64,000 nucleotides of DNA from Squalus acanthias (GCA_030390025.1 CM059432.1:29142001-29206000); one strand, 5' to 3'. Shown: positions 8,266 to 51,170, counted from the stretch's first letter. The notes: a model not told the origin generated them from the letters alone. Made by a program: numbers and translations.

Positions 8266-10222
8266 CCCATTCTGTTCTCTTCCCACCATTCCCTCATCTC
8301 ATCTCCTGCCCCCCTCCTTCTCCCACCCTCGTCCTCACTTCCCTGACACATCACAACCCTGGCTGATCTGCTTTTTCAATCTTCCCTTCCTCGCCTTCCA
8401 CAGATCCATGATGGAGATTATCGACCATCGGTAGATCTGGTAATGCCATGAGGTGGAGCTGCTTGTTTTTCGAAGAGGAAACACAGAGCATTGAAACAGA
8501 AGAGGCACTTGCCGTTCCTTTGAACTTTCTGTGAAAGGCTAGTCGCGTAGGCAGCATAAAATATGGATTAAAAGGACCACTCACTCGCACGGATGCATCA
8601 AAGAGGAAAAAGTAGCTCAGGAGAAAATAAATAAAACATGGAAGACAACCCCCTCGATGGACTACTTAGGGGGAGTTTATTTATCACTGTCGGCATTGAG
8701 CAAGTTCTTGAGCTGTCAGAGTGGGAGGGCAGACAATGAGATGCATTCATTGATGAATGAGGCACATTGAGGGGTGGGGCCCCTGGGACCCTGATCCCAG
8801 CGTGGGACTTTCCATTTTATTGCTGTCCTATAGCGAATTCAACCAAACCCAAGAGTTTTTCTTATTTCAGCACACTCCTGCTGGAGAATCACGCTGAAGT
8901 TAACCATGTGTCTGATTCAGCTGCAGCTCAAAGCTGACAAGCTCAATCCTGTTTTCTTTTGTGCTGTGGGGCTCGCGTGTGTTTTGCACTGAGAGGTCAT
9001 TATTCATTGACACCTGGTGCTGTGTGCCTGGCTTTGGTGTCGGTTTGCATGCAGGAGCACATTACTATCAACTGAGTGAGTTGACTGTCGTGGAAGAGCT
9101 TTTATTTGAGAAAAGGACAAACTGTGCTGAGAATGGAGACATCAGTCTTTAAGCTCAAATTGATACAATAGTGGTTGTATTCCATGCAAATACCTCTCCT
9201 CCGTGATGTGTGCATAAGAAGTGTACAACACGTGTCCCCTTTATAACACGACGTATTCTGCACTTGTTTCTGTTATCATTACAGCAGTATTTTAATGCAC
9301 TGTCTTTTAAATGGGATATGTTCATAAGAAAGCATGGAACAAGAAACTGTCATTAGGGCATCTACAGACTATGTAGAGTTCGCTCTGTCATGGGTTGTGC
9401 CCAATCAATGTAAGCCTTAGGCTGCCGGCAGATTCATGGAATGGCATGCATCATGAGCCAACCGATTTTTTAAAGGCTTTCTATTAACAAAATAGTATTA
9501 AATTGGAACTGACTATTACAATAATTTCCTGGCTGGCTTCCTATCTTCCACACTGCATGCAAAACTCTGCTCTAACTCGCACCATTGTAAGCTTTTTATT
9601 TCGACTGGCATTAAATTGACAGCAAGACCAATTCTTTTGAAACAATTTGGAATAAGTTTATTGAACACACACACTCATGCAAGTTTATTAAACACACACA
9701 CTCATGCACATCAAAACAATAGCCTACTGGTATTTATGGACTCTACTCGATTACAACTTGTAAGGCAATGGGTTAGATTTACACAGACTGGTACTTCCCT
9801 GAGTTAAGCAATGCATGCGGCCTATTTCCTTGCTTCTTGGTCTGGTCTGTAGAGGGAGGGTTTCTTGTTCTTCCGCGTGGTCGTCCAGAGAGAGAGAGCC
9901 TTTGGTTCCTTGTTTTTATATCTTTTTAAAGTCCATTGTCTTCTAGTTTAAATTCTTAAGACGCCACGATTGAGTCTTAGATTCATGGCAGTTCTTGATT
10001 GGCTTTCCTTTGAACATGTGTCTGTCTGCAATGGCTGGTGTCATTTCTTGCTTAAGTTAATTGTTTGTTGACACCTTTTAGTGGTTCTTGAGTTTCGATG
10101 GTGAGTTTCGATGGTGTCTCTGGGGGGGGTTATCCTGTTATGCAGGTTTCCTTTGTTAAGTTTCACGCCGTTGCCTTACCCAGGGGAGATCCATACACAT
10201 TAAATTTATCTTTATTACATAT

Positions 10223-11945
10223 TGTAAGGGATTCCTGACCCTGCGTGTCTCGTGGCCTGTGAGATTCACGCGGCTCTGTGCAGCCTGTATGTCAGTGCGG
10301 GTCTAGGCCTTGCTGCCTGTTCTGGTCTCCAGCCAGTCTGGGAACACTAGACACACCTGTGAGTGGTTCGAATCACTCTCCCTTACGGTTCTAGACACTG
10401 GACTTAGATGCGAGAGCAGTAATGGAGATAAAACTCATGTAGACTTGGTTTGAATGGTACGAAATGGAAAATCTTTATTGCATGATACTTAAAATTATGA
10501 AATACATGTCATAAGCACAGATTAATGACAGTACAATCTTACAAACAGTTATGTAGTCGATCTTAGGGAAACGAGGAACGAACGGCACAAAGTAAATAGG
10601 GGCACACATTACAAATATCCTGAATCCTTAAACCCTCCCCTATCAATATCTATCCTAAACTAGATTCGTAGGATCTCGAGACTCATGCTCACCACTCGTG
10701 ATAACTCGGAGAAATTCCGAATAGCTGATCGGATGTTTTTCACCGCAGCACCCACGTGTCGGTCAGGAGATCTCCTGGTCCCACTTGTTTACTTGCTTCT
10801 GCTGCTCCGGCTAGCAGGCTGGACCGTCTGCTGTGATGAAGACCTGTGTTGGTTGGCTTAACAGGTACTCTTCGAACACAGTTGTCAATATCGTCGATAC
10901 GATATGTTTTCACGTTCCAGTTACTTTGGGCACAGTCCAGTTATCATCGATGCAATATGTTTCGTTGCAAGTTCAAAAGAGAAATCTTCCTGGCGAGGAA
11001 AACTTGGCTAATCGACCTACAGGCGCAGTCGGGATTTACTGACCGTGGCGATGGATATGGTCTTCCTCTCTTCTCATCTCATCTCATCTCATCTCATCTC
11101 ATCTCGGGCCTTCGGTTCCGCTGCCAGTTACCAACATAGGTCTTCGTTACGCGACACGAGGTAGATCCGAACGGATCAGAAAATGCAACAGTCTTTTCAG
11201 AAGAGGCAACAGGCAAGCAGAAGCCCAACTACGAGTACACAGGAGCAGCCACGAGGTTACGAATCGACCGGATAAAAGCACAGGAGCCAGCGAGCAAGAG
11301 CAAGAGCGAGAGAGTGAATGGGCGGTTTGGAGCCTGCAATTATAGTGCAAAATCTTCCGTTTCCCGCCCAACTATAATGTCCATTCTTTTGTTTAGGGTT
11401 TGGCGCCCAAATGTCTTGTATGGGTGATCTCCGTTCTTAATGGGTTTCGGGGCTACTCGTAAATGTCTGAGTACCTGTTAATATTTCTCCCATTGTTAAA
11501 TCGGTCGGTGTTCTCCCTGGAGGGGTTTGGGGCTTCCAAGTGTCCTGTATAACTACCTGCTAACGGCTCTCTCATCGTAGAGTCGTTGGGATTTTACATA
11601 TTAATGTCTTTTGGATGGGCCCTTGATTACTCGGTACAAAGGCTTTCCTTTGTACCTGGGAGACCGATTCCAGTATCTATGTTTATACTGCAAACCCATA
11701 ATGTCTCGTGTATTATCTTCACTGTGCTGAATCTTAATCGATCTTGCACAAATGTTTATTGGAACGCCATCTTGTCTGCCTGTTGAAGAGTCTAGAATGT
11801 TCTGTCACGAGGTGCGGCGGCCATTTTACAGGCTGCTTGTGTCCACTTTAAACCTGCCAGCATTCTGCTGAAAATAAAAGCTGTTTGAACGAAACTCTGT
11901 GTTTTCTCCTTATTAACAAAATCGCGATATATTGCGAATTCTACA
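10223..11945 (-). repeat. 3' LTR of the provirus
   Basis: Direct repeat of 17962-19684 (offset 7739); minus-strand AATAAA at 10474-10479; (ATCTC)n microsatellite at about 11072-11105. Confidence 0.97.
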
Positions 11946-11955
11946 GTCCCTCCTG
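11946..11955 (-). promoter_or_regulatory. Polypurine tract (short)
   Basis: Minus strand CAGGAGGGAC directly abuts the 3' LTR start TGTAG. Confidence 0.7.
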
Positions 11956-12395
11956 TTGATGCGAATAACTCCGCTTATCGTATCAAAAATCATAGTGGTG
12001 AGCAATATTATCTCGATTTCTCTCCGAATCCAGTAAATTAATCCCATAATTTTAAATTAGCTAGGGTCTCTGTGTCGTCCTCATTTCCCAAGAAGATTAC
12101 ATTTTATATCACCGTAGGCATTATTTGCCCTTAAACTTACACCACTTGTTTTCCTTCCCGGCGTAACCAGGCCGATGCCTCTCGTATCACCTGTATATTC
12201 ATCTTTTATTCAGGGAAAGGAGAAACAAAACCCAAAACCAAACAATCATTTTTAACTGTAACACCATCACCAAAATAATCAACACCAACTCTTAAAACAT
12301 GTCGAGTTCCCAACGTATTTACAATCTCTGAAAATCATGATTGAGTACAAACTTCCGTGGTGCACGTGGCGAGCGGGAGTGACGCCATTTTCCGA

Positions 12396-14747
12396 TCACA
12401 CGGTGCTTTCATCGTGCACGCGCACGTAACGTTCTCGCCACTCTCCCGTGTTTTCATGCTTGGTGAGGCGCTTGTCTCTTTTACAATGTACGACCAATAG
12501 GTACACTACAATGAAAACTTGGCATACGACTAAAATGTGGGAGGCTATTCTGATCCATGAAGGCACTTCAATATTAGTGAACAGATTCCACCACGGTGGA
12601 ACTACTATATCCAGAATGTCTGTTCCTATTTCGACAGTTTTCTGCTCTAATGTGTAAAAGTGTTTCTGTGACACCGCGACGGCTTTTAAAAGCTTGGTGA
12701 GGTGTTCAGGGAGAGGGGGAATGAGGTATCCAAAATGCGCGACGAATCGCTGCAAGTCGGTGAAATTCTCTTTTACCGTGAGATGAACAGTGGATGGTTC
12801 AGGGATTGGGATAATTCGCTGTTGTGCTACTTGAACTTCCGCCCTGGGTTTAAAACAGAAACTGCTGTCACTCACCGGACACCGGCTACGGTTTCCATGC
12901 TGGTAGTGTTGCGCTGCAGTGGTAACACAATATGTTCCACCCCCGATGTATGCTACCTGCGGAGGCACATGATCTTGTGCCATTGCCTCCATGGTGCAAT
13001 TCATGGACTTGGCGCCAGCCGTTCTGAACCCGCACTGTGGTGTTAAAAAGGCATTCAAGTGCTGGGGGCACAGTATTATGTGTGCTCCCCTGCCACGACA
13101 ACCAGAGAGATCTGTACCTGTCATCGTTTGCTCCCAGCGGATGACGTAAGGTGGAACCGCTGCATAACGAATGTGGGCTCCCCCCTGAATGACACCAATG
13201 TTCTCTACCCGATATACCGGGGCGGGCTTTGCTGTGTCGCCCAAAACCGGCATGCGTAAAACTATACCCATAATGGTATGGTTTGATCGTCCGCAGTCCA
13301 CGGGGACTGGGTATGCTTCTGAAGCTAGCCTGAGCTGGCACGGGCTCAATGCGTTCTGAAAAGGGTGGAGCGCCCGTAGGTGTTTGTTACTTATCCAGGA
13401 CGGAACCAAACCTTGTTTTAAATCCTCCAAATTACTGCGGCCCTCGCCCAGTAACCACGCCCCGTAAAGCACGCACACCTCGTTCTGCGCAGCTTGATCG
13501 GATGCATTCCGATCTTCCCTAATCAGGGCATTTACCGTCTTTGCATGTTTCTCCAACTCTGCTATAATTTCCTTTAAATGGAGGGTCATGGCTTGGTCCT
13601 CGTGTAGACCTGACCCTACCACTTTATTCTCATCTGTTAGAATGTCTTTTAATTGCGTTTTTAGACCATTAATCTGGGTCTGCAGCTCCACACTGTCTAG
13701 AGCGTTGACCACGGATGTACCCGTGTTAAAAGCAGTGAACGCATCGTTCACCAAACCCCTTCTTTGCCTCCCTACTTGATCCAAAACTTCCTGTGGTGCG
13801 GTGTACAAACTTGTTTTATCAATTTCCGCGAAATCGAATTCGTAAAATTGCCTGAACATCTTGGTCAACAGGACCTGGTACAACTGTTCCGTCTTTTTGG
13901 GGCACCACTCTGGTAACCGCACCTCAGTGAGATTTAAAATCACCGAGGCCACCGCGTAATGTACCCCCTGAAATAGTATCTGGTCTGTGGGGACCAGTAC
14001 CAAACCATTCCCGGGTCCCTTACTAGTTTTAGGGCACCCTTCTTCCTCAGCTAGAACCACCGGAATCGTGGGCGGGGCTTTGCGTGGGCGCGTAATGAGC
14101 TCAGTGGCATTTACTGGGATCGGGGAGAATGGGGCTCCGCACCCCCTGGTGCTCGCATCCCACCTCATTCCCTGTCCGTTATCCTGCCATTGATTGATAA
14201 AAAATATGGAGATGCCTTTGGGGCAAACGTACTTTGACCCCCACATACATACATAAATTCCCTCATCCGGTTCCCACCATTTGTCCCAACAGACTTTCAC
14301 TTGTCCGTCTGTCCCCGTAATTGTCCGATGGGTATTATTACCCAGTCGTTCCCACTCGACCGAAGAGTTTCTCATAGTTTTGCTCAGCTTTCGCAGCCAC
14401 CACCATCGGCTCAATGGGACCTTCCCACTACAAGTCAAACAAATCCGTTTGCCGACGGTGACGCTGATCCTGGGTGCGATGATCCTTACTTTGGGGCACA
14501 GTAAAGAAGTCTCTTGGTAGGCAAACCCCGACGTGCTGGAATACTCCGTTGAGTTCGTTCCCAGCCATCCTGGCCACCTTCCCTTGTGGAAATAGGTGCT
14601 GGTCTCCTCTGCCTCCCGTCTTCCGGTCCCATCCACCGCGATGGGGGCCGTGTCCCCGGAACATCCAAACACCACGACATCCTTGGTGCGGCCTCGATAG
14701 GCCAATCCACATCCGATTGCCACGAGCAATACTAGAATTCGTTCCAT
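12396..14747 (-). CDS. env: Envelope glycoprotein, class I fusion protein of F-like type, 783 aa from MERILVLL
   Basis: Signal peptide MERILVLLVAIGCGLA; furin site RQRR/GLV (13758-13769); heptad region; Cys-rich segment; TM ILVVCQVFIVVYLLVV; many N-x-S/T sites; ORF uninterrupted. Confidence 0.88.
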   Translation of the reverse strand: MERILVLLVAIGCGLAYRGRTKDVVVFGCSGDTAPIAVDGTGRREAEETSTYFHKGRWPGWLGTNSTEYSSTSGFAYQETSLLCPKVRIIAPRISVTVGKRICLTCSGKVPLSRWWWLRKLSKTMRNSSVEWERLGNNTHRTITGTDGQVKVCWDKWWEPDEGIYVCMWGSKYVCPKGISIFFINQWQDNGQGMRWDASTRGCGAPFSPIPVNATELITRPRKAPPTIPVVLAEEEGCPKTSKGPGNGLVLVPTDQILFQGVHYAVASVILNLTEVRLPEWCPKKTEQLYQVLLTKMFRQFYEFDFAEIDKTSLYTAPQEVLDQVGRQRRGLVNDAFTAFNTGTSVVNALDSVELQTQINGLKTQLKDILTDENKVVGSGLHEDQAMTLHLKEIIAELEKHAKTVNALIREDRNASDQAAQNEVCVLYGAWLLGEGRSNLEDLKQGLVPSWISNKHLRALHPFQNALSPCQLRLASEAYPVPVDCGRSNHTIMGIVLRMPVLGDTAKPAPVYRVENIGVIQGGAHIRYAAVPPYVIRWEQTMTGTDLSGCRGRGAHIILCPQHLNAFLTPQCGFRTAGAKSMNCTMEAMAQDHVPPQVAYIGGGTYCVTTAAQHYQHGNRSRCPVSDSSFCFKPRAEVQVAQQRIIPIPEPSTVHLTVKENFTDLQRFVAHFGYLIPPLPEHLTKLLKAVAVSQKHFYTLEQKTVEIGTDILDIVVPPWWNLFTNIEVPSWIRIASHILVVCQVFIVVYLLVVHCKRDKRLTKHENTGEWRERYVRVHDESTV

Positions 14748-14760
14748 CCTTCCTTGGTTC

Positions 14761-14780
14761 CTGTGATCAGATAAAATGAG
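14761..14780 (-). promoter_or_regulatory. Candidate env splice acceptor
   Basis: Minus strand CTCATTTTATCTGATCACAG|G, 13 nt upstream of the env ATG. Confidence 0.6.
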
Positions 14781-14924
14781 GTAGCCAGCCTCGCAAGAGT
14801 CTCTGGCTTTTGTGAAGGGTGAGCGGGTCCCCTGACCTCGCCTCACGTAAACTTCAACGTTCGCTGAATAAACTTCAACTAAACCTATCTTTAAAGCTCC
14901 CATCATTTTATCGCTTTCTGTTAA

Positions 14925-14995
14925 AACACTTAAAACTTAACCTTGAACTATAAACTTAAAACTTAACCTTGAACTATAAACTTAAAACTTACAAC
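14925..14995. repeat. Short AT-rich tandem repeat (about 26-nt unit) between ORF-X and env
   Basis: AAACTTAAAACTTAACCTTGAACTAT repeated about 2.5 times. Confidence 0.75.
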
Positions 14996-15035
14996 TTCTT
15001 ACTATACAGTGCCGCCCGTTCTCAGGGCGGCCCCT

Positions 15036-16145
15036 TTAAATTCTGAGAAGGCTGCTGCGAGCTCTTCCCGACGGTGGGAGGGCACTGACCCTTCCCTCTG
15101 ATCTGCCGCAGCCTGTTACTGCTGCGATGTGGCCGGTCTGTACCCGGGTTATCTTAACCTGAATTTTACGCCTTGGGGCAGTCTGGGGACATGACCACAT
15201 CCTCCTGGGCTGGGGTTCTCTACTTGACCTACGGGGAGTTGCTATGGGCGGGGGTTCCGTGACGGACGGACCGGGTTCCGAGACTTCCATCGGGATGACC
15301 TGGGGTTCCATCACAGTCGCCGGCTCCGCCTCCGCTGACTCCGCCTCCCTAACCTCGGGGCTGGCAGTTCGTGGCTCCGCCCTGCTCGGCCCAGCAGGCG
15401 GGCCTTCACTCGTGATCTCTGCCTCCCCTGAGGACTGGACGTTCAAAGCGGGCGGCCACATCTCTGGGAGCCACACCGGTACTCTCTGTGCTCCTATAGC
15501 GGCTGGCCCTGCCTCCTCTAGCTCCTCCCTCCTGTCCTCGGGACCTGCAGCTTGTGTGTCCACCCTGTGTGGATCTCTACCTACAGCCCCCATTCCCTCC
15601 AGACCGTTCCTCAGGAACCACCCGTCATCATCACTATGCTCATCTGCACTATCCTCATCTGACCAGGGTACCCTGAGTTCTTCCTCATCTAACCCCCAAT
15701 TCCAGAAAAACGCTGCATGATCGTCCGGGATGTCCCTTCCCCTGATGCAAGCTGCTATGCCTGCCTGTGTGCCTTGTGGTCCTACCTGGGGCTGTGCTTT
15801 CCCATTGGCGGGATTTACCCCTGTAGTTTTCCCCTGCGCACCTGGCTGGTACAGTTTGCATTGGTTTACATCCTCATACTCCCGGCTTTTGGCTACCCTG
15901 TAGGCTGCTTTTATCTCTCTAAGCTGCTCTTCTAGCCTGAGCACGTCTAACTTTCCCATTGATCGGGCGTTCTCCTCCCGCAGGGCCTGCTCTCTAAGCT
16001 GCCCTTCCAGCCCATCTATTTTCCCTATTAAGCGGGCGTTCTCCTCCCGCAAGGCCTGCTCTTTTAACCTGGCCTCCTCACCGCAGACCCCCTCCTGTGC
16101 GTGTCTTTTAAAAGGACACAGGTAGGCAGGCTGCGTGGGCTCTAG
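15036..16145 (-). CDS. ORF-X: unknown protein (coiled-coil, acidic, then Pro/Glu-rich), 369 codons, in frame with gag
   Basis: Open from the codon after the gag TGA (LEPTQPAYLCPF...) to TAA at 15036-15038; no protease, RT, RNase H or integrase motifs seen. Confidence 0.7.
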   Translation of the reverse strand, partial: LEPTQPAYLCPFKRHAQEGVCGEEARLKEQALREENARLIGKIDGLEGQLREQALREENARSMGKLDVLRLEEQLREIKAAYRVAKSREYEDVNQCKLYQPGAQGKTTGVNPANGKAQPQVGPQGTQAGIAACIRGRDIPDDHAAFFWNWGLDEEELRVPWSDEDSADEHSDDDGWFLRNGLEGMGAVGRDPHRVDTQAAGPEDRREELEEAGPAAIGAQRVPVWLPEMWPPALNVQSSGEAEITSEGPPAGPSRAEPRTASPEVREAESAEAEPATVMEPQVIPMEVSEPGPSVTEPPPIATPRRSSREPQPRRMWSCPQTAPRRKIQVKITRVQTGHIAAVTGCGRSEGRVSALPPSGRARSSLLRI

Positions 16146-17957
16146 TCATTGGGTACTATTAGACGGTCCTGCGGCACCTACGGGGCCGGTTGCGACCGCC
16201 ACCTGTCCACGCGCATTCAAGACCAGCTTGCGCATGGCTCCTAACACTGCTTCGAGGTCGTCGGGAGGGGTGGGTGCCTTGGCTTCCTTAGCCGGGACAG
16301 GCGCCTGGGCTCGGACCGCGGGATTTTTATCCTTGGAATCCTTCCAAGGGTTCCTGCAATGCTTGCGCCAGTGCCCTGTCTTCCCACACCCGTAACAAGC
16401 ATTACTTGCCTGTGGGGCGCGATTACCCTCCTGATGCCACTCTCTTTGATACGGGGCTGCGGGTCGTACCTCATGTACTCTTCCCTTAAGGGGACGTGTT
16501 GCCATACCCCTTATATTGCGATAACCTAACGTGAGTCGATTCAAGACCGACTCTTCCGTAATGTTGGGGTCATTGGGATCAAACCATGCTTTTGCCTGCT
16601 CTCTAACGGCTGGTAAACTGTTGGCTATTATGCACCTAAGCCAATGAGTTAAAGTTAAACCTTCCACATCTTCGCGCTCGGGCGCACCTAGACAGCTGCG
16701 CTCATATACTGGCCACAGCCTGTCGGCAAAAACCTTCGGGGGTTCTCCCTCCATCTGCACTGTCTGTCCCACTCTAGCAAACGGACCTTCATCGTTCGCC
16801 CCCAACACTTCCAGGACCTCGTTCTTTAATTCCTCATAACTCTTGGTTCCCCTCTTGCTCTCGCCTGAGAGACACTGAAGGACCGAGCTGTCTAATGAGA
16901 ACAGCAGCATTTTTGCTGTCTCCCCATCATCGCAGCCGTTAATGGCTGCGGCTTGCTCAACTTCTCTGAAATGTACGGAAGGGTCGTCTATCTCGGTCAG
17001 CTTCCGTACGTGATTTATCATAGCTCTCAGCTGATGTGAACTGTGAGGCAACACCAGCTGTCCGAGGAGATCCCCCGGTTCTTCCCCACCGTTTCTGCTT
17101 GGGCCCCTTTTAATACCCGTTACTGGATACAACGATCCCTTTTCTACTTCCTTTTCAATGGGCTCTTTTGTTTCTTCCATTGCTTCCTCCCTAACCCAGG
17201 TTTCTGAATAGCTGGGTGGCGCGGAGGGCGCAGTGGCTACTACTTCTTCTGCTTTACTTGGTGGGGATTTTCTAAATCTCTCATTTACTAGCGGCTGGTG
17301 CGCCGACGGATTGATAAGGCACACCATGCCGTTCGCATTGTTCACGGCCTTTTTGAGGTGCTCTATCTCCCTTTGGCAGGCGCTATGATCGGCTCCCTGA
17401 AACTTATCCTCAAGGGCCAACTTATATGCCGCCCTAACCCCCATCAAGCTTTCTTCTTGAGTTCTTATCTGGGCAGCTTGGCGGTTACATCTTTCCTTTA
17501 ACCTGCTCTCATTCAATTTTGCCTCAGTGACCTGGCACTCGAGATAATCTATCCTTGTTTTAAGGTGACTGGAGACTTCCTGGCTTTCTTGGTGTAACTC
17601 ATTTAAATTCTTAATGAGCACCTCCCCTCCAGAAACCTTCTCCTCCATTTCTCCCTCTAAATGACTGATTCGAGCTACTAGCGCTGTAATGGTCTGGTTG
17701 GAAATCTGAACCTGCCTTTTGTAACACATAAGCCAGACTGCTTTCTCCAGTGTCTTCCTATGTTCTTTACTTTCTGTCCACCTTTCAGCTGCCTCCAATG
17801 GGCTCTTATCCGCTAACAATTCACTTATCCATTTCTTAGTTAGATTAACCTTTCCAAACACATAATCCGCTATCTTTTCCTGCATAACATTTCGTACAGT
17901 CATTCCAAAATCTAACACACTACCCTCTCGCTGCCAGTGTCCTGCCGCGGTCGCCAT
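16146..17957 (-). CDS. gag: Gag polyprotein, 603 aa from MATAAGHW
   Basis: N-terminal coiled-coil; PSAPPSY late motifs (17208-17228); capsid-like middle region; zinc knuckle CYGCGKTGHWRKHC (16356-16397); ATG in strong context AAAATGG. Confidence 0.9.
   Translation of the reverse strand: MATAAGHWQREGSVLDFGMTVRNVMQEKIADYVFGKVNLTKKWISELLADKSPLEAAERWTESKEHRKTLEKAVWLMCYKRQVQISNQTITALVARISHLEGEMEEKVSGGEVLIKNLNELHQESQEVSSHLKTRIDYLECQVTEAKLNESRLKERCNRQAAQIRTQEESLMGVRAAYKLALEDKFQGADHSACQREIEHLKKAVNNANGMVCLINPSAHQPLVNERFRKSPPSKAEEVVATAPSAPPSYSETWVREEAMEETKEPIEKEVEKGSLYPVTGIKRGPSRNGGEEPGDLLGQLVLPHSSHQLRAMINHVRKLTEIDDPSVHFREVEQAAAINGCDDGETAKMLLFSLDSSVLQCLSGESKRGTKSYEELKNEVLEVLGANDEGPFARVGQTVQMEGEPPKVFADRLWPVYERSCLGAPEREDVEGLTLTHWLRCIIANSLPAVREQAKAWFDPNDPNITEESVLNRLTLGYRNIRGMATRPLKGRVHEVRPAAPYQREWHQEGNRAPQASNACYGCGKTGHWRKHCRNPWKDSKDKNPAVRAQAPVPAKEAKAPTPPDDLEAVLGAMRKLVLNARGQVAVATGPVGAAGPSNSTQ
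17939..17956 (-). promoter_or_regulatory. Primer-binding site, tRNA-Arg(TCG)
   Basis: TGGCGACCGCGGCAGGAC, 5 nt after the 5' LTR; complementary to the vertebrate tRNA-Arg(TCG) 3' end GTCCTGCCGCGGTCG-CCA (recalled from the human sequence). Confidence 0.88.
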
Positions 17958-17961
17958 TTTC

Positions 17962-19684
17962 TGTAAGGGATTCCTGACCCTGCGTGTCTCGTGGCCTGTG
18001 AGATTCACGCGGCTCTGTGCAGCCTGTATGTCAGTGCGGGTCTAGGCCTTGCTGCCTGTTCTGGTCTCCAGCCAGTCTGGGAACACTAGACACACCTGTG
18101 AGTGGTTCGAATCACTCTCCCTTACGGTTCTAGACACTGGACTTAGATGCAAGAGCAGTAATGGAGATAAAACTCATGTAGACTTGGTTTGAATGGTACG
18201 AAATGGAAAATCTTTATTGCATGATACTTAAAATTATGAAATACATGTCATAAGCACAGATTAATGACAGTACAATCTTACAAACAGTTATGTAGTCGAT
18301 CTTAGGGAAACGAGGAACGAACGGCACAAAGTAAATAGGGGCACACATTACAAATATCCTGAATCCTTAAACCCTCCCCTATCAATATCTATCCTAAACT
18401 AGATTCGTAGGATCTCGAGACTCATGCTCACCACTCGTGATAACTCGGAGAAATTCCGAATAGCTGATCGGATGTTTTTCACCGCAGCACCCACGTGTCG
18501 GTCAGGAGATCTCCTGGTCCCACTTGTTTACTTGCTTCTGCTGCTCCGGCTAGCAGGCTGGACCGTCTGCTGTGATGAAGACCTGTGTTGGTTGGCTTAA
18601 CAGGTACTCTTCGAACACAGTTGTCAATATCGTCGATACGATATGTTTTCACGTTCCAGTTACTTTGGGCACAGTCCAGTTATCATCGATGCAATATGTT
18701 TCGTTGCAAGTTCAAAAGAGAAATCTTCCTGGCGAGGAAAACTTGGCTAATCGACCTACAGGCGCGGTCGGGATTTACTGACCGTGGCGATGGATATGGT
18801 CTTCCTCTCTTCTCATCTCATCTCATCTCATCTCATCTCATCTCGGGCCTTCGGTTCCGCTGCCAGTTACCAACATAGGTCTTCGTTACGCGACACGAGG
18901 TAGATCCGAACGGATCAGAAAATGCAACAGTCTTTTCAGAAGAGGCAACAGGCAAGCAGAAGCCCAACTACGAGTACACAGGAGCAGCCACGAGGTTACG
19001 AATCGACCGGATAAAAGCACAGGAGCCAGCGAGCAAGAGCAAGAGCGAGAGAGTGAATGGGCGGTTTGGAGCCTGCAATTATAGTGCAAAATCTTCCGTT
19101 TCCCGCCCAACTATAATGTCCATTCTTTTGTTTAGGGTTTGGCGCCCAAATGTCTTGTATGGGTGATCTCCGTTCTTAATGGGTTTCGGGGCTAATCGTA
19201 AATGTCTGAGTACCTGTTAATATTTCTCCCATTGTTAAATCGGTCGGTGTTCTCCCTGGAGGGGTTTGGGGCTTCCAAGTGTCCTGTATAACTACCTGCT
19301 AACGGCTCTCTCATCGTAGAGTCGTTGGGATTTTACATATTAATGTCTTTTGGATGGGCCCTTGATTACTCGGTACAAAGGCTTTCCTTTGTACCTGGGA
19401 GACCGATTCCAGTATCTATGTTTATACTGCAAACCCATAATGTCTCGTGTATTATCTTCACTGTGCTGAATCTTAATCGATCTTGCACAAATGTTTATTG
19501 GAACGCCATCTTGTCTGCCTGTTGAAGAGTCTAGAATGTTCTGTCACGAGGTGCGGCGGCCATTTTACAGGCTGCTTGTGTCCACTTTAAACCTGCCAGC
19601 ATTCTGCTGAAAATAAAAGCTGTTTGAACGAAACTCTGTGTTTTCTCCTTATTAACAAAATCGCGATATATTGCGAATTCTACA
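17962..19684 (-). repeat. 5' LTR of the provirus
   Basis: Direct repeat of 10223-11945; candidate minus-strand promoter GGGCGG, CGGAAG, TATAAT at about 19078-19108. Confidence 0.97.
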
Positions 19685-19739
19685 ATATTAATAGTCTCGA
19701 GTCCATCACACATACAAAACATATATTTTTATTCTTACA

Positions 19740-35919: not shown

Positions 35920-37680
35920 AAAATTCATTCATGGGATGTGGGCTTCGCTGGCAAGGCTGGCATTTATTGCCCATCCCTTCTTGCCCTTGAGAAAGTGGTG
36001 GTGAGCCGCCTTCTTGAACCGCTGCAGTCCGTGTGGTGAGGGTACTCTGTTAGGGAGGGAGGGAGTTCCAGGATTTTGACCCAGCGACGATAAAAGAACG
36101 GCGATATACTTCCAAGTCAGGATGGTGTGTGACTTGGAGGGGAACTTGGAGGTGGTGGTATTCCCATGCGCCTGCTGCCCTTGTCTTTCTAGGTGGAAGA
36201 GGTCGCGGGTTTGGGATGTGCTGCCGAAGAAGCCTTGGCAAGTTGCTGCAGTGCATCTTGTAGATGGTACACACTGCAGCCATGGTACGCCGGTGGTAGA
36301 GGAAGTGAATGTTTACGGTGGTTAATGGGATATCAATTAAGCGGGCTGCTTTGTCCTGGATGGTGTCGAGCTTCATGAGTGTTGTTGGAGCTGCACTCAC
36401 CCAGGCAAGTGGAGAGTATTCCATCACACTCCGTCAGGACCACTCAGTACCAGACCTCATTACAGCCTTGGTCCAAACATGGACAAAGGAGCTGAATTCC
36501 AGAGGTGAGGTGAGAGTGACTGCCCTTGACATCAAGGCAGAATTTGACCGAGTGTGGCATCAAGGAGCCCTAGTAAAACTGAAGTCAATGGGAATCGGGG
36601 GTGGGGGGGGAACTCTCCACTGGCTGGAGTCATACCTAGCACAAAAGAAGATGGTTGTGCTTGTTGGAAGTCAATCATCTCAGCCCCATGACATCGCTGC
36701 AGGATTTCTTCAGGGCAGTGTCCGAGGCCCAACCATCTTCAGCTGCTTCATCAATGACCTTCCCTCCAACACAAGGTCAGAAATGGGAATGTTCGCTGAT
36801 GATTGCACAGTGTTCAGTGCCTTTCTCAACTCCTCAGATAATGAAGCAGTCCATGCCCGCATGCAACAAGACCTGGACAACATTCAGGCTTCAGCTGATA
36901 AGTGGCAGGTAACATTGGTGACACAGAAGTGTCAGGCAATGACCATCTCCAACAAGAGAGAGTCTAATCACCTCCCATTGACATTCAATGGCATTACCAT
37001 CATTGAATCCCCCACCATCAACATCCTGGGGCTCACCATTGACTATAAGCTTAACTGGACCAGCCACATAAATACTGTGGCTACAAGAGCAACTCAGAGG
37101 CTGGGTATTCTGTGGCGAATGACTCATCTCCTGACTCCCCAAAGCCTTTTCACCACCTATAAGGCACAAGTCAGGGGTGTGATGGAATTCTCTTCACTTG
37201 CCTGGATGAGTGCAGCTCCAACAACACTCAAGAAGCTTGACAAAGCAGCCCACTTGATCGGCACCCCATGCACCACCTTAAACATTCATTCCCTCTACCA
37301 CCAGTTCAAAGTGGCTGCAGTGTGTACCATCTACAAGATGCACTGCAGCAACTCGCCAAGGTTTCCTCGACAGCACCTCCAAACCCGCCACCTCTACATA
37401 GAAGGACAAGGGCAGCAGGTGCCTGAGAACACCACCACCTCCAAGTTCCCCTCCAAGTCACACACCATCCTGACTTGGAAATATATCGCCGTTCCTTCAT
37501 TGTCGCTGGGTCAAAATCCTGGAACTCCCTCCCTAACAGCATTGTGGGAGTACCTTCACCACACAGACTGCAGCGGTTCAAGAAGGCGGCTCACCACCAC
37601 CTTCTCAAGGGCAATTTGGGATGGGCAATAAATGCTGGCCCTGCCAGTGATGCCCACATCCCGTGAGTGAATAAATTAAA
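35920..37680. mobile_element. Two LINE family B pieces fused head-to-head: 35920-36431(-) and 36432-37680(+)
   Basis: Both pieces carry the same 3' tail in opposite orientation; chimeric ORF 36309..37631 with MFADD. Confidence 0.85.
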
Positions 37681-48379: not shown

Positions 48380-51170
48380 CAAATCTAAAGGCACTATATC
48401 TGAATGCATGAAGCATTCGTAATAAGGTAGACGAATTAACAGCACAAATAGATGTAAACGGATATGATATAATTGCAATTACGGAGACATGGCTGCAGGG
48501 TGACCAAGGCTGGGAGCTGAATATCCAAGGATATTTGATATTTAGGAAGGACAGGTGAAAAGGAAAAGGAGGTGGGGTGGCCTTGTTAGTAAAGGATGAA
48601 ATCAGAGCAATAGTGAGAAAGGATATTGGCTCAGAAAATCAAGATGTAGAATCAGTCTGGGTGGAACTAAGAAGCACCAAGTGGCAGAAAACATTAGTGG
48701 GAGTTGTCTACAGGCCTCCAAACAGTAGTGGTAATGTAGGGGATGGCATCAAACAGGAAATTAGAGATGCATGTAACAAGGGTACTACAGTAATCATGGG
48801 TGACTTTAATCTACATATAGATTGGCCAAACCAAATTAGCAATAATACTGTGGAGGGTGAATTCCTGGAGTGTGTATGAGATAGTTTTTTAGACCAGTAT
48901 GTTGAGGAGCCAACTAGGGAACAGGCTATCCTAGATTGGGTATTGTGCAATGAGAAGGGGTTAAGTAATAATCTTGTTGTGCGGGGTCCTTTAGGGAAGA
49001 GTGACCATAACATGATAGAATTCTTCATTAAAATGGAAAGTGAAGAAGCCCAATCCGAAACTAGGGTCCTAAATCTAAACAAAGGAAACTACGATGGTAT
49101 GAGGAGTGAGTTGGCTATGATAGATTGGGGAGCTTCATTAAAAGGCATGACAGTGGAATGAATGCATGAATTGCAACAGTTATAGATTCCTTTCTGGCAC
49201 AAGAACACAAAAGGAAAAGTGGCCCAACCATAGCTAACAAAAGAAATTAAGGATAGTATTAGATCCAAAGAGGAGTCATATAAAGTTGCCAGTAAAAGTA
49301 GCAAGCCTGAGGATTGGGAGCAGTTTAGAGTTCAGCAAAAAAGGACCAAGAGATTGATTAAGAGGGGAAAAATAGAGTATGAGAGTAAACTTGCAAGGAA
49401 CATAAAAGCGGATTGTAAAAGCTTCTACAAGTATGTAAATAGAAAAAGATTAGTGAAGACAAATGTAGGTCCCTTACAGTCAGAAATGGGAGAATTTATA
49501 ATGGAGAACAAAAAAATGGCTGAGCAATTAAACAAATACTTTGGTTCTGTCTTCACGGAAGAGGACACAAATAACTTCCCAGAAATGCTAGGGAACCAAG
49601 GGTCTAGTGAGAAGGAGGAATTAAAGGAAATTAGTATGAGTAAAAAAATAGTGCTGGAGAAATTAATGGGACTGAAAGCTGATAAATCCTCAGGGCCTGA
49701 TAATCTGCATCCCAGAGTACTAAAAGAGGTAGCCATGGAAATAGTGGATGCATTGGTTGTCATCTTCCAAAATTCTATAGATTATGGAACAGTTCCTGCA
49801 GATTGGAGGGTGGCAAATGTAATCCCACTATTTAAAAAAGGAGGGCAAGAGAAAACAGGGAACTATCGACCGGTTAGCCTAACATCAATAGTAGGAAAAA
49901 TGCTAGAGTCTATTATAAAGGATGTGATAACAGGACACTTAGAAAATATCAACGGGATTAGACAAAGTCAACATGGATTTATGAAAGGGAAATCGTGTTT
50001 GACAACCCTACTGGAGTTTTTTGAGGATGTAACTGGTAGAATAGATAAGGGAGAACCAGTGGATGTGGTGTATTTGGATTTTCAGAAGGCCTTTGATAAA
50101 GTCCCACATAAGAGGTTAGTGTGCAAAATTAAAGCACATGGGATTGGGGGTAATATACTGGCATGGATTGAAAATTGGTTAACAGACAGGAAACAGAGAG
50201 TAGGAATAAATGGGTCTTTTTCGGGGTGGCAGGCGGTGACTAGTGGGGTACCACAGGGATCAGTGCTTGGGTCCCAGCTATTCACAATATATATCAATGA
50301 TTTGGATGAGGGAACCAAATGTAGTATTTTCAAGTTTGCCGACGACACGAAACTAGGTGGGATTGTGAGTTGTGAGGAGGATGCAAAGAGGCTTCAAGGC
50401 GATTTAGACAAGTTGAGTGAGTGGGCAAATACATGGCAGAAGCAGTATAACGTGGATAAATTTGAAGTTATCCACTTCGGTAGGAAAAACAGAAAGCTAG
50501 AGTATTATTTAAATGGTGATAGATTGGGATATGCTGATATACAAAGGGACCTGGGTGTCCTTGTACACCAGTCACTGAAAGCAAACACGCAGGTGCAGCA
50601 AGCAGTTAGGAAGGCAAATGGTATGTTGGCCTTTATTGCAAGAGGATTTGAGAACAGGAGCAAGGATGTCTTACTACAGTTGTACAGGGCCTTGGTGAGA
50701 CCACACCTGGAGTACTGTGTGCAGTTTTGGTCTCCTTACCTAAGAAAGGATATACTTGCCATAGAGGGAGTGCAGCGAAGGTTCACCAGACTGATTCCTG
50801 GGATGGCAGGACTGTCGTATGAGGAGAGATTGGGTCGACTAGGCCTGTATTCACTAGAGTTTAGAAGAAGAGAGGGGATCTCATTGAAATGTATAAAATT
50901 CTGACAGGGCTAGACAGACTGGATGCAGAGAGGATGTTTCCCCTGGCTGGGGGGTTGAGAACGAGGTGTCACAGTCTCAGGATACGGGGTAGGACATTTA
51001 GGACTGAGATGAAGAGAAATTTCTTCACTCAGAGGGTGGTGAACCTTTGGAATTCTCTACCACAGAAGGCTGTGGAGGCCAAGTCACTGAATATATTTAA
51101 GAAGGAGATAGATAGATTTCTAGACACAAAAGGCATCAAGGGGTATGGGGAGAGAGTGGGAAGATAGTAT
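48380..51170 (+). pseudogene. CR1 ORF2 (APE endonuclease and reverse transcriptase), with stops and frameshifts; 516-aa open RT stretch at 49354..50904
   Basis: [33 protein letters not shown] and FADD motifs. Confidence 0.92.

Follow-up and report, generated by a model that had tools for sequence, protein, structure and literature searches.

A pol-less morph of a young endogenous retrovirus family in Squalus acanthias keeps gag and a predicted F-type env beside a full-length sibling

A 64,000-nt stretch of the genome of Squalus acanthias (GCA_030390025.1 CM059432.1:29142001-29206000), referred to here as the window, carries on its minus strand a complete provirus of 9,462 bp (positions 10223-19684) with a pair of long terminal repeats (LTRs), gag, an open reading frame (ORF) called ORF-X, and env. 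It is very probable that this short element is a defective morph of a young, high-copy endogenous retrovirus (ERV) family, mobilized by the enzymes of a full-length sibling. The original prediction described an LTR-primer site-gag-ORF-X-env-polypurine tract-LTR element with a target-site duplication and three open frames, with neither protease (PR), reverse transcriptase (RT), RNase H nor integrase (IN) and no room for them, and this anatomy is correct. It further proposed a non-autonomous lineage that borrows Pol from a helper, and whose pol slot holds a different long ORF and not a simple deletion. The non-autonomous part stands, given that none of the element's three proteins has a Pol domain and that a pol-bearing helper of 12.8 kb with the same LTR ends and primer site is found in the same genome. 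The new gene in the pol slot does not stand, because most of ORF-X is left over from pol.

Results

The full-length sibling and the origin of ORF-X

The LTR was searched against the 3.7-Gb assembly from which the window comes, and the 40 that were scored, of 4,452 candidates, are full-length or nearly full-length matches with 97-100% identity. Among these 40, LTR pairs occur at two spacings, of approximately 7.73 kb or 11.1 kb. The long sibling, 12.8 kb in length, has its LTRs, primer site, gag and env in common with the short form. Four long and seven short internal regions were compared first, from copies taken as the best matches to the window LTR or to the foreign block described below. 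All seven short regions are collinear with the window element from end to end, and so are all four long ones, except that they carry 3,620 bp in place of 245 nt.

In each of the four long copies the gag stop is followed, in the gag frame, by a pol ORF of 1,494 codons. Its product shows the Pfam domains RVP, RVT_1, RT_RNaseH, RNase_H, Integrase_H2C2, rve and SH3, followed by approximately 270 residues without a domain. The presence of two RNase H-type domains (RT_RNaseH/RT_RNaseH_2 at Pol residues 470-602 and RNase_H at 650-793) is a general retroviral feature and does not discriminate. The tail of this Pol (...NQCKLYQPGAQG...SSLLRI) is the same, in sequence and in frame, as the last 276 codons of ORF-X. 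At the other end, the 33 nt from the gag stop to the break carry six fixed differences, which start at 16140, and for this reason the replaced block is approximately 277 nt, extending beyond the 245 nt. The lost segment of pol, 3,620 bp, runs from PR through the SH3 domain of IN.

ORF-X is therefore made up of 11 pol codons, approximately 82 foreign codons and the 276 codons of the Pol tail, and 287 of its 369 codons are Pol-derived and in the Pol frame. The original prediction had set degraded Pol against a novel gene, and ORF-X comes close to the former, with foreign codons that show no sign of protein-level constraint. ORF-X is not a new gene: as with other defective ERV morphs, a segment was deleted and a short piece of sequence took its place.

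Copy number, insertion and age

Copy numbers were taken from whole-genome counts of 28-mers, for which all the reversed-pattern controls gave 0. The junction between block and tail found in the window (type 1) has 385 matches and a second junction (type 2) has 433, both with up to two mismatches, while a 28-mer inside the block has 1,302 matches with up to three. For the long form, the junction between IN and the tail has 1,215 matches (up to two mismatches) and the PR region 2,063 (up to three). The candidate counts obtained in DNA mode (1,353, 1,841, 1,269 and 768) are not additive and are not copy numbers. The pol-less form thus accounts for roughly a quarter to two fifths of the copies with an internal region, and its junction matches are found on all large contigs. 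In the type-2 copy examined (L063), the same block is joined in frame approximately 75 nt deeper into the tail.

The pol-less architecture has also been inserted independently. Five short loci on different contigs (C8, C5, C3663, C9 and C7) have flanks of their own and 4-bp duplications of their own (ATAT, CCAG, GTTC, TTCC and GCAC, respectively). The GCAC duplication bounds a tandem LTR-internal-LTR-internal-LTR array (C7:29041525-29058667; L025, L023, L027). A sixth short locus lies at a contig start, and no duplication is readable there. Duplications were also found at two long loci and six solo LTRs. The two LTRs of a copy differ by 2-4 substitutions (0.12-0.23%) in eight short pairs and by 0-1 (0-0.06%) in two long pairs, in copies that, as best matches to the window LTR, are biased to the youngest.

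Tandem proviruses with a common middle LTR are frequent in this ERV family: nine pairs of short-junction matches approximately 7.7 kb apart occur among the first 100 listed, and long-form pairs approximately 11.1 kb apart also occur. A solo LTR with the duplication ATGG lies at C3437:14470-22384 (L018-L020) inside a host segment repeated in tandem with a period of approximately 3 kb, which indicates that this LTR was multiplied by duplication of host DNA.

Contigs from public sequencing runs bridge the block in X1, X5 and X9, which carry three organism labels, and contain ends of the long form in X1, X5, X9 and X11. Across runs X1-X14, with six organism labels, 41-82% of the sampled 31-mers of window 14800-17000 are present, indicating that near-identical copies exist beyond one data set.

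Integrity of the genes, selection and exchange between the morphs

The gag gene is open in 13 of 14 short copies and in all four long ones, ORF-X is open from end to end in 11 of the 14 short copies, and pol is open in the four long copies. For env, 10 of the 14 short copies are fully open, one is open from the second Met and three are broken, and three of the four long copies are open. All three frames are open in 7 of the 14 short copies. Given that gag and env are mostly open, the loss of coding capacity that is a feature of the bovine D type and of ETn is not found here.

Calculated over all 153 pairs, the ratio of non-synonymous to synonymous polymorphism (pN/pS) is 0.06 in env, 0.18 in gag and 0.43 in the Pol tail, the last read in its true frame, and the env variants common to at least two copies are 58 synonymous and 8 non-synonymous. 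This shows purifying selection on gag and env in the family. In the tail, four of five distinct indel events keep the frame (a 39-nt copy-number variant, present as +39 and as +117; +12; and a net +33), whereas the indels of the neighboring non-coding sequence are mostly not multiples of three. The 39-nt variant lies at window 15085-15122 (near 15118) and, among 17 copies compared with the window copy, it occurs as +39 in four and as +117 in one. The contigs of each of the four public runs examined show it too, as a joint that "goes back 38" and has one base extra. An antisense ORF at 15163-15720 on the plus strand was considered as an overlapping gene and rejected, given that one antisense frame owes its low ratio to that of the sense frame, exactly as happens in gag and env.

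Comparison of the 14 short with the four long copies shows no fixed difference outside window 16140-15870. At 68 sites (19 in gag, 8 in the tail and 41 in env) the same two bases segregate in both morphs. The copies form two haplotype groups, each with short and long members, and some of them are visible mosaics. Mean divergence is alike within and between the morphs (gag 1.07, 0.82 and 0.97%; env 1.15, 1.12 and 1.08%). The common polymorphisms, together with the absence of fixed differences outside the block, suggest recombination between the morphs.

Three more loci that bear the block were compared, and two of them (L060 and L062) belong to a diverged subfamily. They differ from the window copy by 8% at the LTR end, 7.4-7.9% in gag (pN/pS 0.23-0.27), 13-17% in the tail and 3% in the 5' half of env. 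In both, an island of near-identity begins 35 nt ahead of the gag stop and ends 6 nt beyond the right junction. Of all parts of the short morph, only the block lacks a homolog in the helper, so it alone may have kept the recent single ancestry of this morph, while its flanks would be continually replaced by template switching with helper RNA.

The foreign block

The longest exact match between the block and the long element is 13 nt. The block holds a direct repeat of 54 nt (15940-15993 and 16009-16062), and this internal repeat is all that BLAST returned when the source of the block was sought in the long element and elsewhere in the short one. BLASTP against Gag gave E 1.4, no cluster of the Atlas reached 0.9, and the search of 5.8 billion proteins gave no match among 383 candidates of 202-646 aa, longer proteins not being searched. 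A Pfam match to a Rab11-FIP3-like domain (E 0.0091; 16.7 bits, where the cut-off is 31.9) was taken as coiled-coil noise. Of the two helices that the single-sequence model of ORF-X predicts with confidence, one spans residues 20-59 and the other residues 65-93; together they correspond to the block, and the remainder has no confident structure.

All 13 further short copies that were aligned carry the same block. Its variants are 10 non-synonymous and 3 synonymous, against approximately 3.1 : 1 for the possible changes, with a pN/pS of 1.14 among the short copies; in this small sample there is no sign of protein-level constraint. Diversity of the block in the young subfamily is 1.10%, compared with 1.07% for gag, and the block of the diverged subfamily (L060, L062) is unlike that of the window at only 2 of 279 positions.

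At the RNA level, the sequence after the gag stop of the short morph (window 16030-16151, minus strand) is predicted to form a long hairpin from shared and block sequence, with -48.7 kcal/mol (z -2.47; 4 of 200 shuffles do equally well). The matching stretch of the long morph gives -30.5 kcal/mol (z +0.88) and no such hairpin. These folds were predicted without pseudoknots, and no conclusion on readthrough is drawn from the hairpin of the short morph.

Gag and the context of its stop codon

Gag has a coiled-coil-rich N-terminal half and a single CCHC knuckle at residues 521-534 (CYGCGKTGHWRKHC), which is matched weakly by Pfam zf-CCHC (E 0.29) and by the nucleocapsid of HIV-1 (E 0.13). Its nearest cluster in the Atlas, a language-model lead only, is DUF4939/Retrotrans_gag/zf-CCHC (score 0.92, 175 shared features). 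The gag stop stands in the context TGA CTAG in all 18 aligned copies, which is named as a high-readthrough motif (PMC12817336).

Env

The env product has a likely signal peptide from Met54 (MERILV...) and an F-like module at residues ~296-780. Motifs predict a cleavage site, fusion peptide and anchor as in F proteins: a furin-type site RQRR at 380-383 is followed by GLVNDAFTAF..., and a hydrophobic stretch at ~787-806 would be the membrane anchor. A word-indexed search returned two relatives, a skate protein and a sawshark protein, while an exhaustive search returned 50 at E<=0.001, of which 16 are at E<=1e-30. The alignment was built from the query and 39 of these 50, after 11 short or N-terminal-only matches had been removed by eye.

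None of the 40 sequences (the window Env and its 39 relatives) matches PF00523 (Fusion_gly) at E<=0.01, and the window Env does not match it at E<=1. One of the 40 matches Baculo_F (E 0.0011), and the window Env itself has an Ig_3 match at E 0.51. With the family profile, the best solved match is the foamy-virus gp130 (8rm1_D), which is weak (E 0.029), and with the window sequence alone nothing in the PDB falls below E 1.

The AlphaFold model has a mean predicted local distance difference test score (pLDDT) of 58 and is confident only at residues 290-360 and 450-700, with no confident model for the N-terminal ~290 residues. With this model, Foldseek matched nothing but F proteins of paramyxo- and pneumoviruses, with 231 chains at E<=0.001 and F of human parainfluenza virus 3 as the top match (E 2.7e-10). 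VIA-align gave a Z of 13.2 with 345 residues aligned and a root-mean-square deviation of 12.4; the 50 entries shown are all F proteins, and 226 chains have Z>=8. The part of the model aligned to F chains, residues 296-780, takes in a predicted F2-like strand region, F1 core domains and a long heptad helix. The F-type env of the original prediction is thus supported at the level of the predicted fold, and not by a Pfam sequence match.

Pol

The Pol of the long form scores about equally against the RTs of Ty3, MLV/XMRV and foamy viruses. The best solved relative of its integrase is that of prototype foamy virus (PFV). The nearest named relatives of Pol are frog and coelacanth proteins with 40-42% identity, and Pol proteins of gamma/epsilon and foamy type are at approximately 30% (29% for simian foamy virus). 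A FastTree phylogeny of the query and 34 of the 120 listed hits, which holds no lokiretrovirus reference, places the family in a supported clade of 12 rows that includes sequences of frogs, coelacanth and birds; the gamma/epsilon rows and simian foamy virus fall outside this clade, and the base of the tree is unresolved. In the wider clade, four "NYNRIN-like" Pol-like proteins of birds (P0070, P0074, P0075 and P0081, from ostrich, stork, crane and antbird) are almost identical, with end branches of 0.02-0.13, and form the sister group of row P0065. Conservation of this kind across birds may point to a gene that has been domesticated or evolves very slowly.

Anatomy of the window element and its surroundings

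The LTR pair was delimited by extending the two direct repeats base by base until they diverge fully, and the ends are TG...CA (Table 1). The primer-binding site lies 4 nt internal to the 5' LTR. It is an exact 18-nt complement to a tRNA-Arg(TCG) gene of the same genome (ARAGORN, L057) and shares 2 nt with the ATG of gag. Its stretch is identical in 17 of the 18 aligned copies, with one substitution in the other. The purine tract next to the 3' LTR reads AGGAGGGA in element sense, and the polypurine stretch is identical in all 12 copies, among the 18 aligned, whose piece covers it fully. ORF-X (16145..15036, 369 codons from stop to stop) opens right after the gag stop, in the gag frame. None of the three proteins of the element has a Pfam match for PR, RT, RNase H or IN, and only approximately 1.24 kb separates the gag stop from the start of env.

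Table 1. Features of the provirus in window coordinates
Feature	Position	Strand	Remarks
Target-site duplication ATAT, 3' side in element sense	10219..10222		Same 4 nt at 19685-19688
3' LTR, 1,723 bp, TG...CA	10223..11945	-	Unlike the 5' LTR at 3 of 1,723 positions
Polypurine tract region, AACAGGAGGGAC in element sense	11946..11957	-	Adjoins the 3' LTR
env, 836 aa	12396..14906	-	
Spacer, non-coding, from ORF-X stop to env ATG	14907..15035	-	Short direct repeats; indel-rich among copies; 4.6-5.8% divergence
ORF-X part 3, C-terminal tail of Pol (helper Pol aa ~1219-1494)	15036..15868	-	Original frame; collinear with the long form; predicted disordered
ORF-X part 2, foreign block in place of 3,620 bp of pol	15869..16113	-	Two predicted helices
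ORF-X part 1, first ~11 pol codons after the gag stop	16114..16145	-	6 fixed differences from the long form
gag, 603 aa	16146..17957	-	Stop TGA at 16146-16148
Primer-binding site, 18 nt	17939..17956	-	Complement of the 3' end of tRNA-Arg(TCG) plus CCA
5' LTR, 1,723 bp	17962..19684	-	
Target-site duplication ATAT, 5' side in element sense	19685..19688		

The tRNA-Arg(TCG) gene whose 3' end matches the primer-binding site is carried, with an intron-like insert (92 nt, ARAGORN), by a large tandem array with a period of 1,623 bp at C26:~38.99-40.9 Mb (L057 = C26:40540450-40540650). More diverged LTR elements on C1, C2, C3 and C5 (L051-L056) use the same tRNA-Arg primer site, with the complement of CCA mutated (GCCA to GTCA or GACA), and appear to be older relatives of this ERV family or members of other families. 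Elsewhere in the window, two plus-strand ORFs have RVT_1 matches, at 36309-37631 (440 codons, E 2.8e-20) and at 49234-50904 (556 codons, E 1.7e-29), and these probably belong to other retroelements.

Discussion

The window element shares its LTRs, primer site and polypurine tract with a competent sibling, has lost replication functions through a central swap, and has been copied to new sites, as is found for defective morphs of other ERVs. The full-length morph encodes gag, a TGA stop, an in-frame pol (PR-RT-tether-RNase H-IN and a tail of ~270 aa that is predicted to be disordered) and a predicted F-type env. In the short morph, the segment from PR through the SH3 domain of IN is swapped for ~277 nt of unrelated sequence with the frame kept, and readthrough of the gag stop would give a Gag-block-Pol-tail fusion in place of Gag-Pol. 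Alone, such an element is capable neither of reverse transcription nor of polyprotein cleavage or integration. It retains the needs in cis (LTRs, tRNA-Arg primer site, polypurine tract and leader) together with complete gag and env. In the proposed mechanism, its RNA would most likely be packaged with full-length RNA and then copied and integrated by the PR, RT and IN of the helper (complementation in trans), and template switching in mixed particles would exchange gag, tail and env between the two morphs.

Several observations weigh against this account. Mobilization in trans is inferred, and no run on record as RNA contains the element, as judged by 31-mers of window 14800-17000. The copies examined are biased, being the best matches to the window LTR or to the block, and only four long copies were compared. 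No source of the block was found in the searches described, its near-identity across subfamilies could mean functional constraint, and the second right-hand junction, of the L063 type, means that the history was not one simple event. Gene conversion between genomic copies could also give the common polymorphism. Moreover, with haplotypes common to both morphs, the purifying selection seen in gag and in env is not assignable to the short morph itself.

The original prediction saw here an independent satellite lineage with a new, functional and needed gene in the pol slot, which is quite improbable. That ORF-X is open from end to end in most short copies, that its tail has a pN/pS of 0.43 and indels that mostly keep the frame, that the block is nearly identical between subfamilies whose flanks are 8-17% apart, and that it is predicted as two confident helices would all be expected of a gene. 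However, 287 codons are those of Pol in the frame of Pol, and the constraint and in-frame indels of the tail are also found in the long copies and are explained by a role in Pol. The variants of the block follow the neutral proportion, its diversity equals that of gag, so that it is not specially conserved, and no homolog of it was found in Pfam, in the Atlas or among the candidates of 202-646 aa in the large protein search. The hundreds of short copies might instead descend from segmental or tandem duplication of one deleted provirus, with neither retrotransposition nor infection. Although tandem arrays such as that on C7 and pairs of junction matches 7.7 kb apart are frequent, this reading is contradicted by the different flanks and 4-bp duplications of five short loci on different contigs, by the spread of junction matches over all large contigs, and by LTRs that are closer within a pair (0.12-0.23%) than between copies (~1.1%); it is extremely improbable. 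It is just as hard to believe that gag and env were kept through co-option by the host and not through replication of the element. Strong purifying selection on env and gag would agree with domestication, but a domesticated single-copy gene would not look like these hundreds of copies, which are nearly identical and have fresh duplications, an intact primer site and intact LTRs, and the same signal of selection is present in the pol-bearing copies.

A further reading, compatible with complementation in trans, is that the short morph is mainly interfering, its fusion product or its competition for packaging lowering the output of the helper; in that case its behavior would be that of a parasite-of-parasite drive, or even of a restriction factor of benefit to the host. 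The swap kept the frame and puts a coiled-coil-like hairpin at the position of PR, the short morph makes up a sizeable share of internal-bearing copies, the RNA after the stop is predicted to be more stable in the short morph than in the long, and the idea of a parasite of a parasite has been proposed for the bovine D-type elements (PMC10924933). Nevertheless, long copies still outnumber short ones, the youngest of the LTR pairs examined belong to the long morph, and the codons of the block look neutral, which leaves this reading unlikely.

A defective morph mobilized by a full-length sibling has known counterparts. In the C/D pair of ERVK[2-1-LTR] in cattle, MusD/ETn and KoRV-A/recKoRV, the central segment of a competent element is swapped for a piece of an old retroelement, with flanks reaching into gag and into env or pol kept (PMC10924933). 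As in the bovine C and D types, two morphs of one young clade have LTRs in common, the center is replaced by unrelated sequence and the defective morph is numerous (PMC10924933). As in MusD/ETn, IAP/I-delta-1 and KoRV-A/recKoRV, a non-autonomous morph appears to ride on a coding sibling, and cis effects of the kept gag flank are suspected; in ETn and recKoRV a piece of another element stands in for the central segment, ETn being non-coding and recKoRV having lost most of gag-pol-env (PMC10924933). Unlike the bovine D type, which has no intact gene, the short morph has complete and mostly open gag and env, and its pol remnant is in frame after the gag stop. Mobilization in trans was observed directly for the bovine D type and is inferred here, and the present pair differs from the bovine one in its host, a cartilaginous fish, and in its predicted F-type Env. 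I-delta-1 keeps RT and IN and makes a gag-pol fusion. In the excerpts of the sources that describe them, neither MusD/ETn nor I-delta-1 nor recKoRV is reported to lack all of PR, RT, RNase H and IN and yet to have kept its two structural genes in full. Likewise, excerpts of the open-access literature on lokiretroviruses, shark ERVs and complementation in trans, and those of PMC10435555 and PMC9040795, gave no description of a morph with a deletion of pol only. The element thus fits the known pattern of competent and defective ERV pairs on every tested feature except its whole, mostly open gag and env with an in-frame pol remnant. What is unusual here is a defective form with intact gag and env, the pairing of defective with competent ERVs being already known.

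Foamy viruses have a Gag without a Cys-His motif and express Pol from a spliced mRNA of its own, whereas Gag here has a CCHC knuckle and pol lies in the gag frame directly after the stop. Like the predicted Env of this family, the foamy-virus Env gp130 (PDB 8RM0/8RM1) is a retroviral Env whose fusion subunit has a core in common with the F proteins of paramyxo- and pneumoviruses (PMC11468914). Lokiretroviruses resemble the family in their LTR-gag-pol-env organization with tether and RNase H (PMC7947760, PMC9040795), in an Env akin to paramyxo- and pneumovirus F with furin-type site, fusion peptide, coiled coil and anchor, and in some very young insertions (PMC7947760). Their Env matches PF00523 by sequence (PMC7947760), whereas none of the 40 sequences does so here and the likeness is one of predicted fold. 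The excerpts of PMC7947760 that give lokiretrovirus hosts do not list cartilaginous fishes.

It is possible, if on balance unlikely, that the short morph is a persistent "satellite retrovirus" that makes its own shell and F-type envelope, both needed in cis, and takes only the enzymes from any active full-length subfamily. The deletion with its block would then be a selfish locus that recombination has moved onto at least three diverged backgrounds (the young subfamily with its two haplotype groups, subfamily B, and the junction class of type 2), and the helical block, fused to Gag by readthrough, might aid in competition for helper Gag-Pol or for packaging.

Defective ERV morphs have been proposed to be parasites of parasites (PMC10924933), and those that outbreed their helpers have been proposed to bring ERV invasions to an end; the cases described come from mammals, with defective partners that have lost their genes. 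Here, in a fish genome, a helper and its enzyme-less partner each reach copy numbers on the order of a thousand, with many apparently very recent insertions. With such a pair it can be asked whether a non-autonomous retrovirus needs gag and env in cis, and at what rate the two morphs recombine. Finally, this family places a retrovirus with a predicted F-type Env in cartilaginous fishes, which bears on the link of lokiretrovirus and foamy-virus envelopes to the F proteins of negative-strand RNA viruses.

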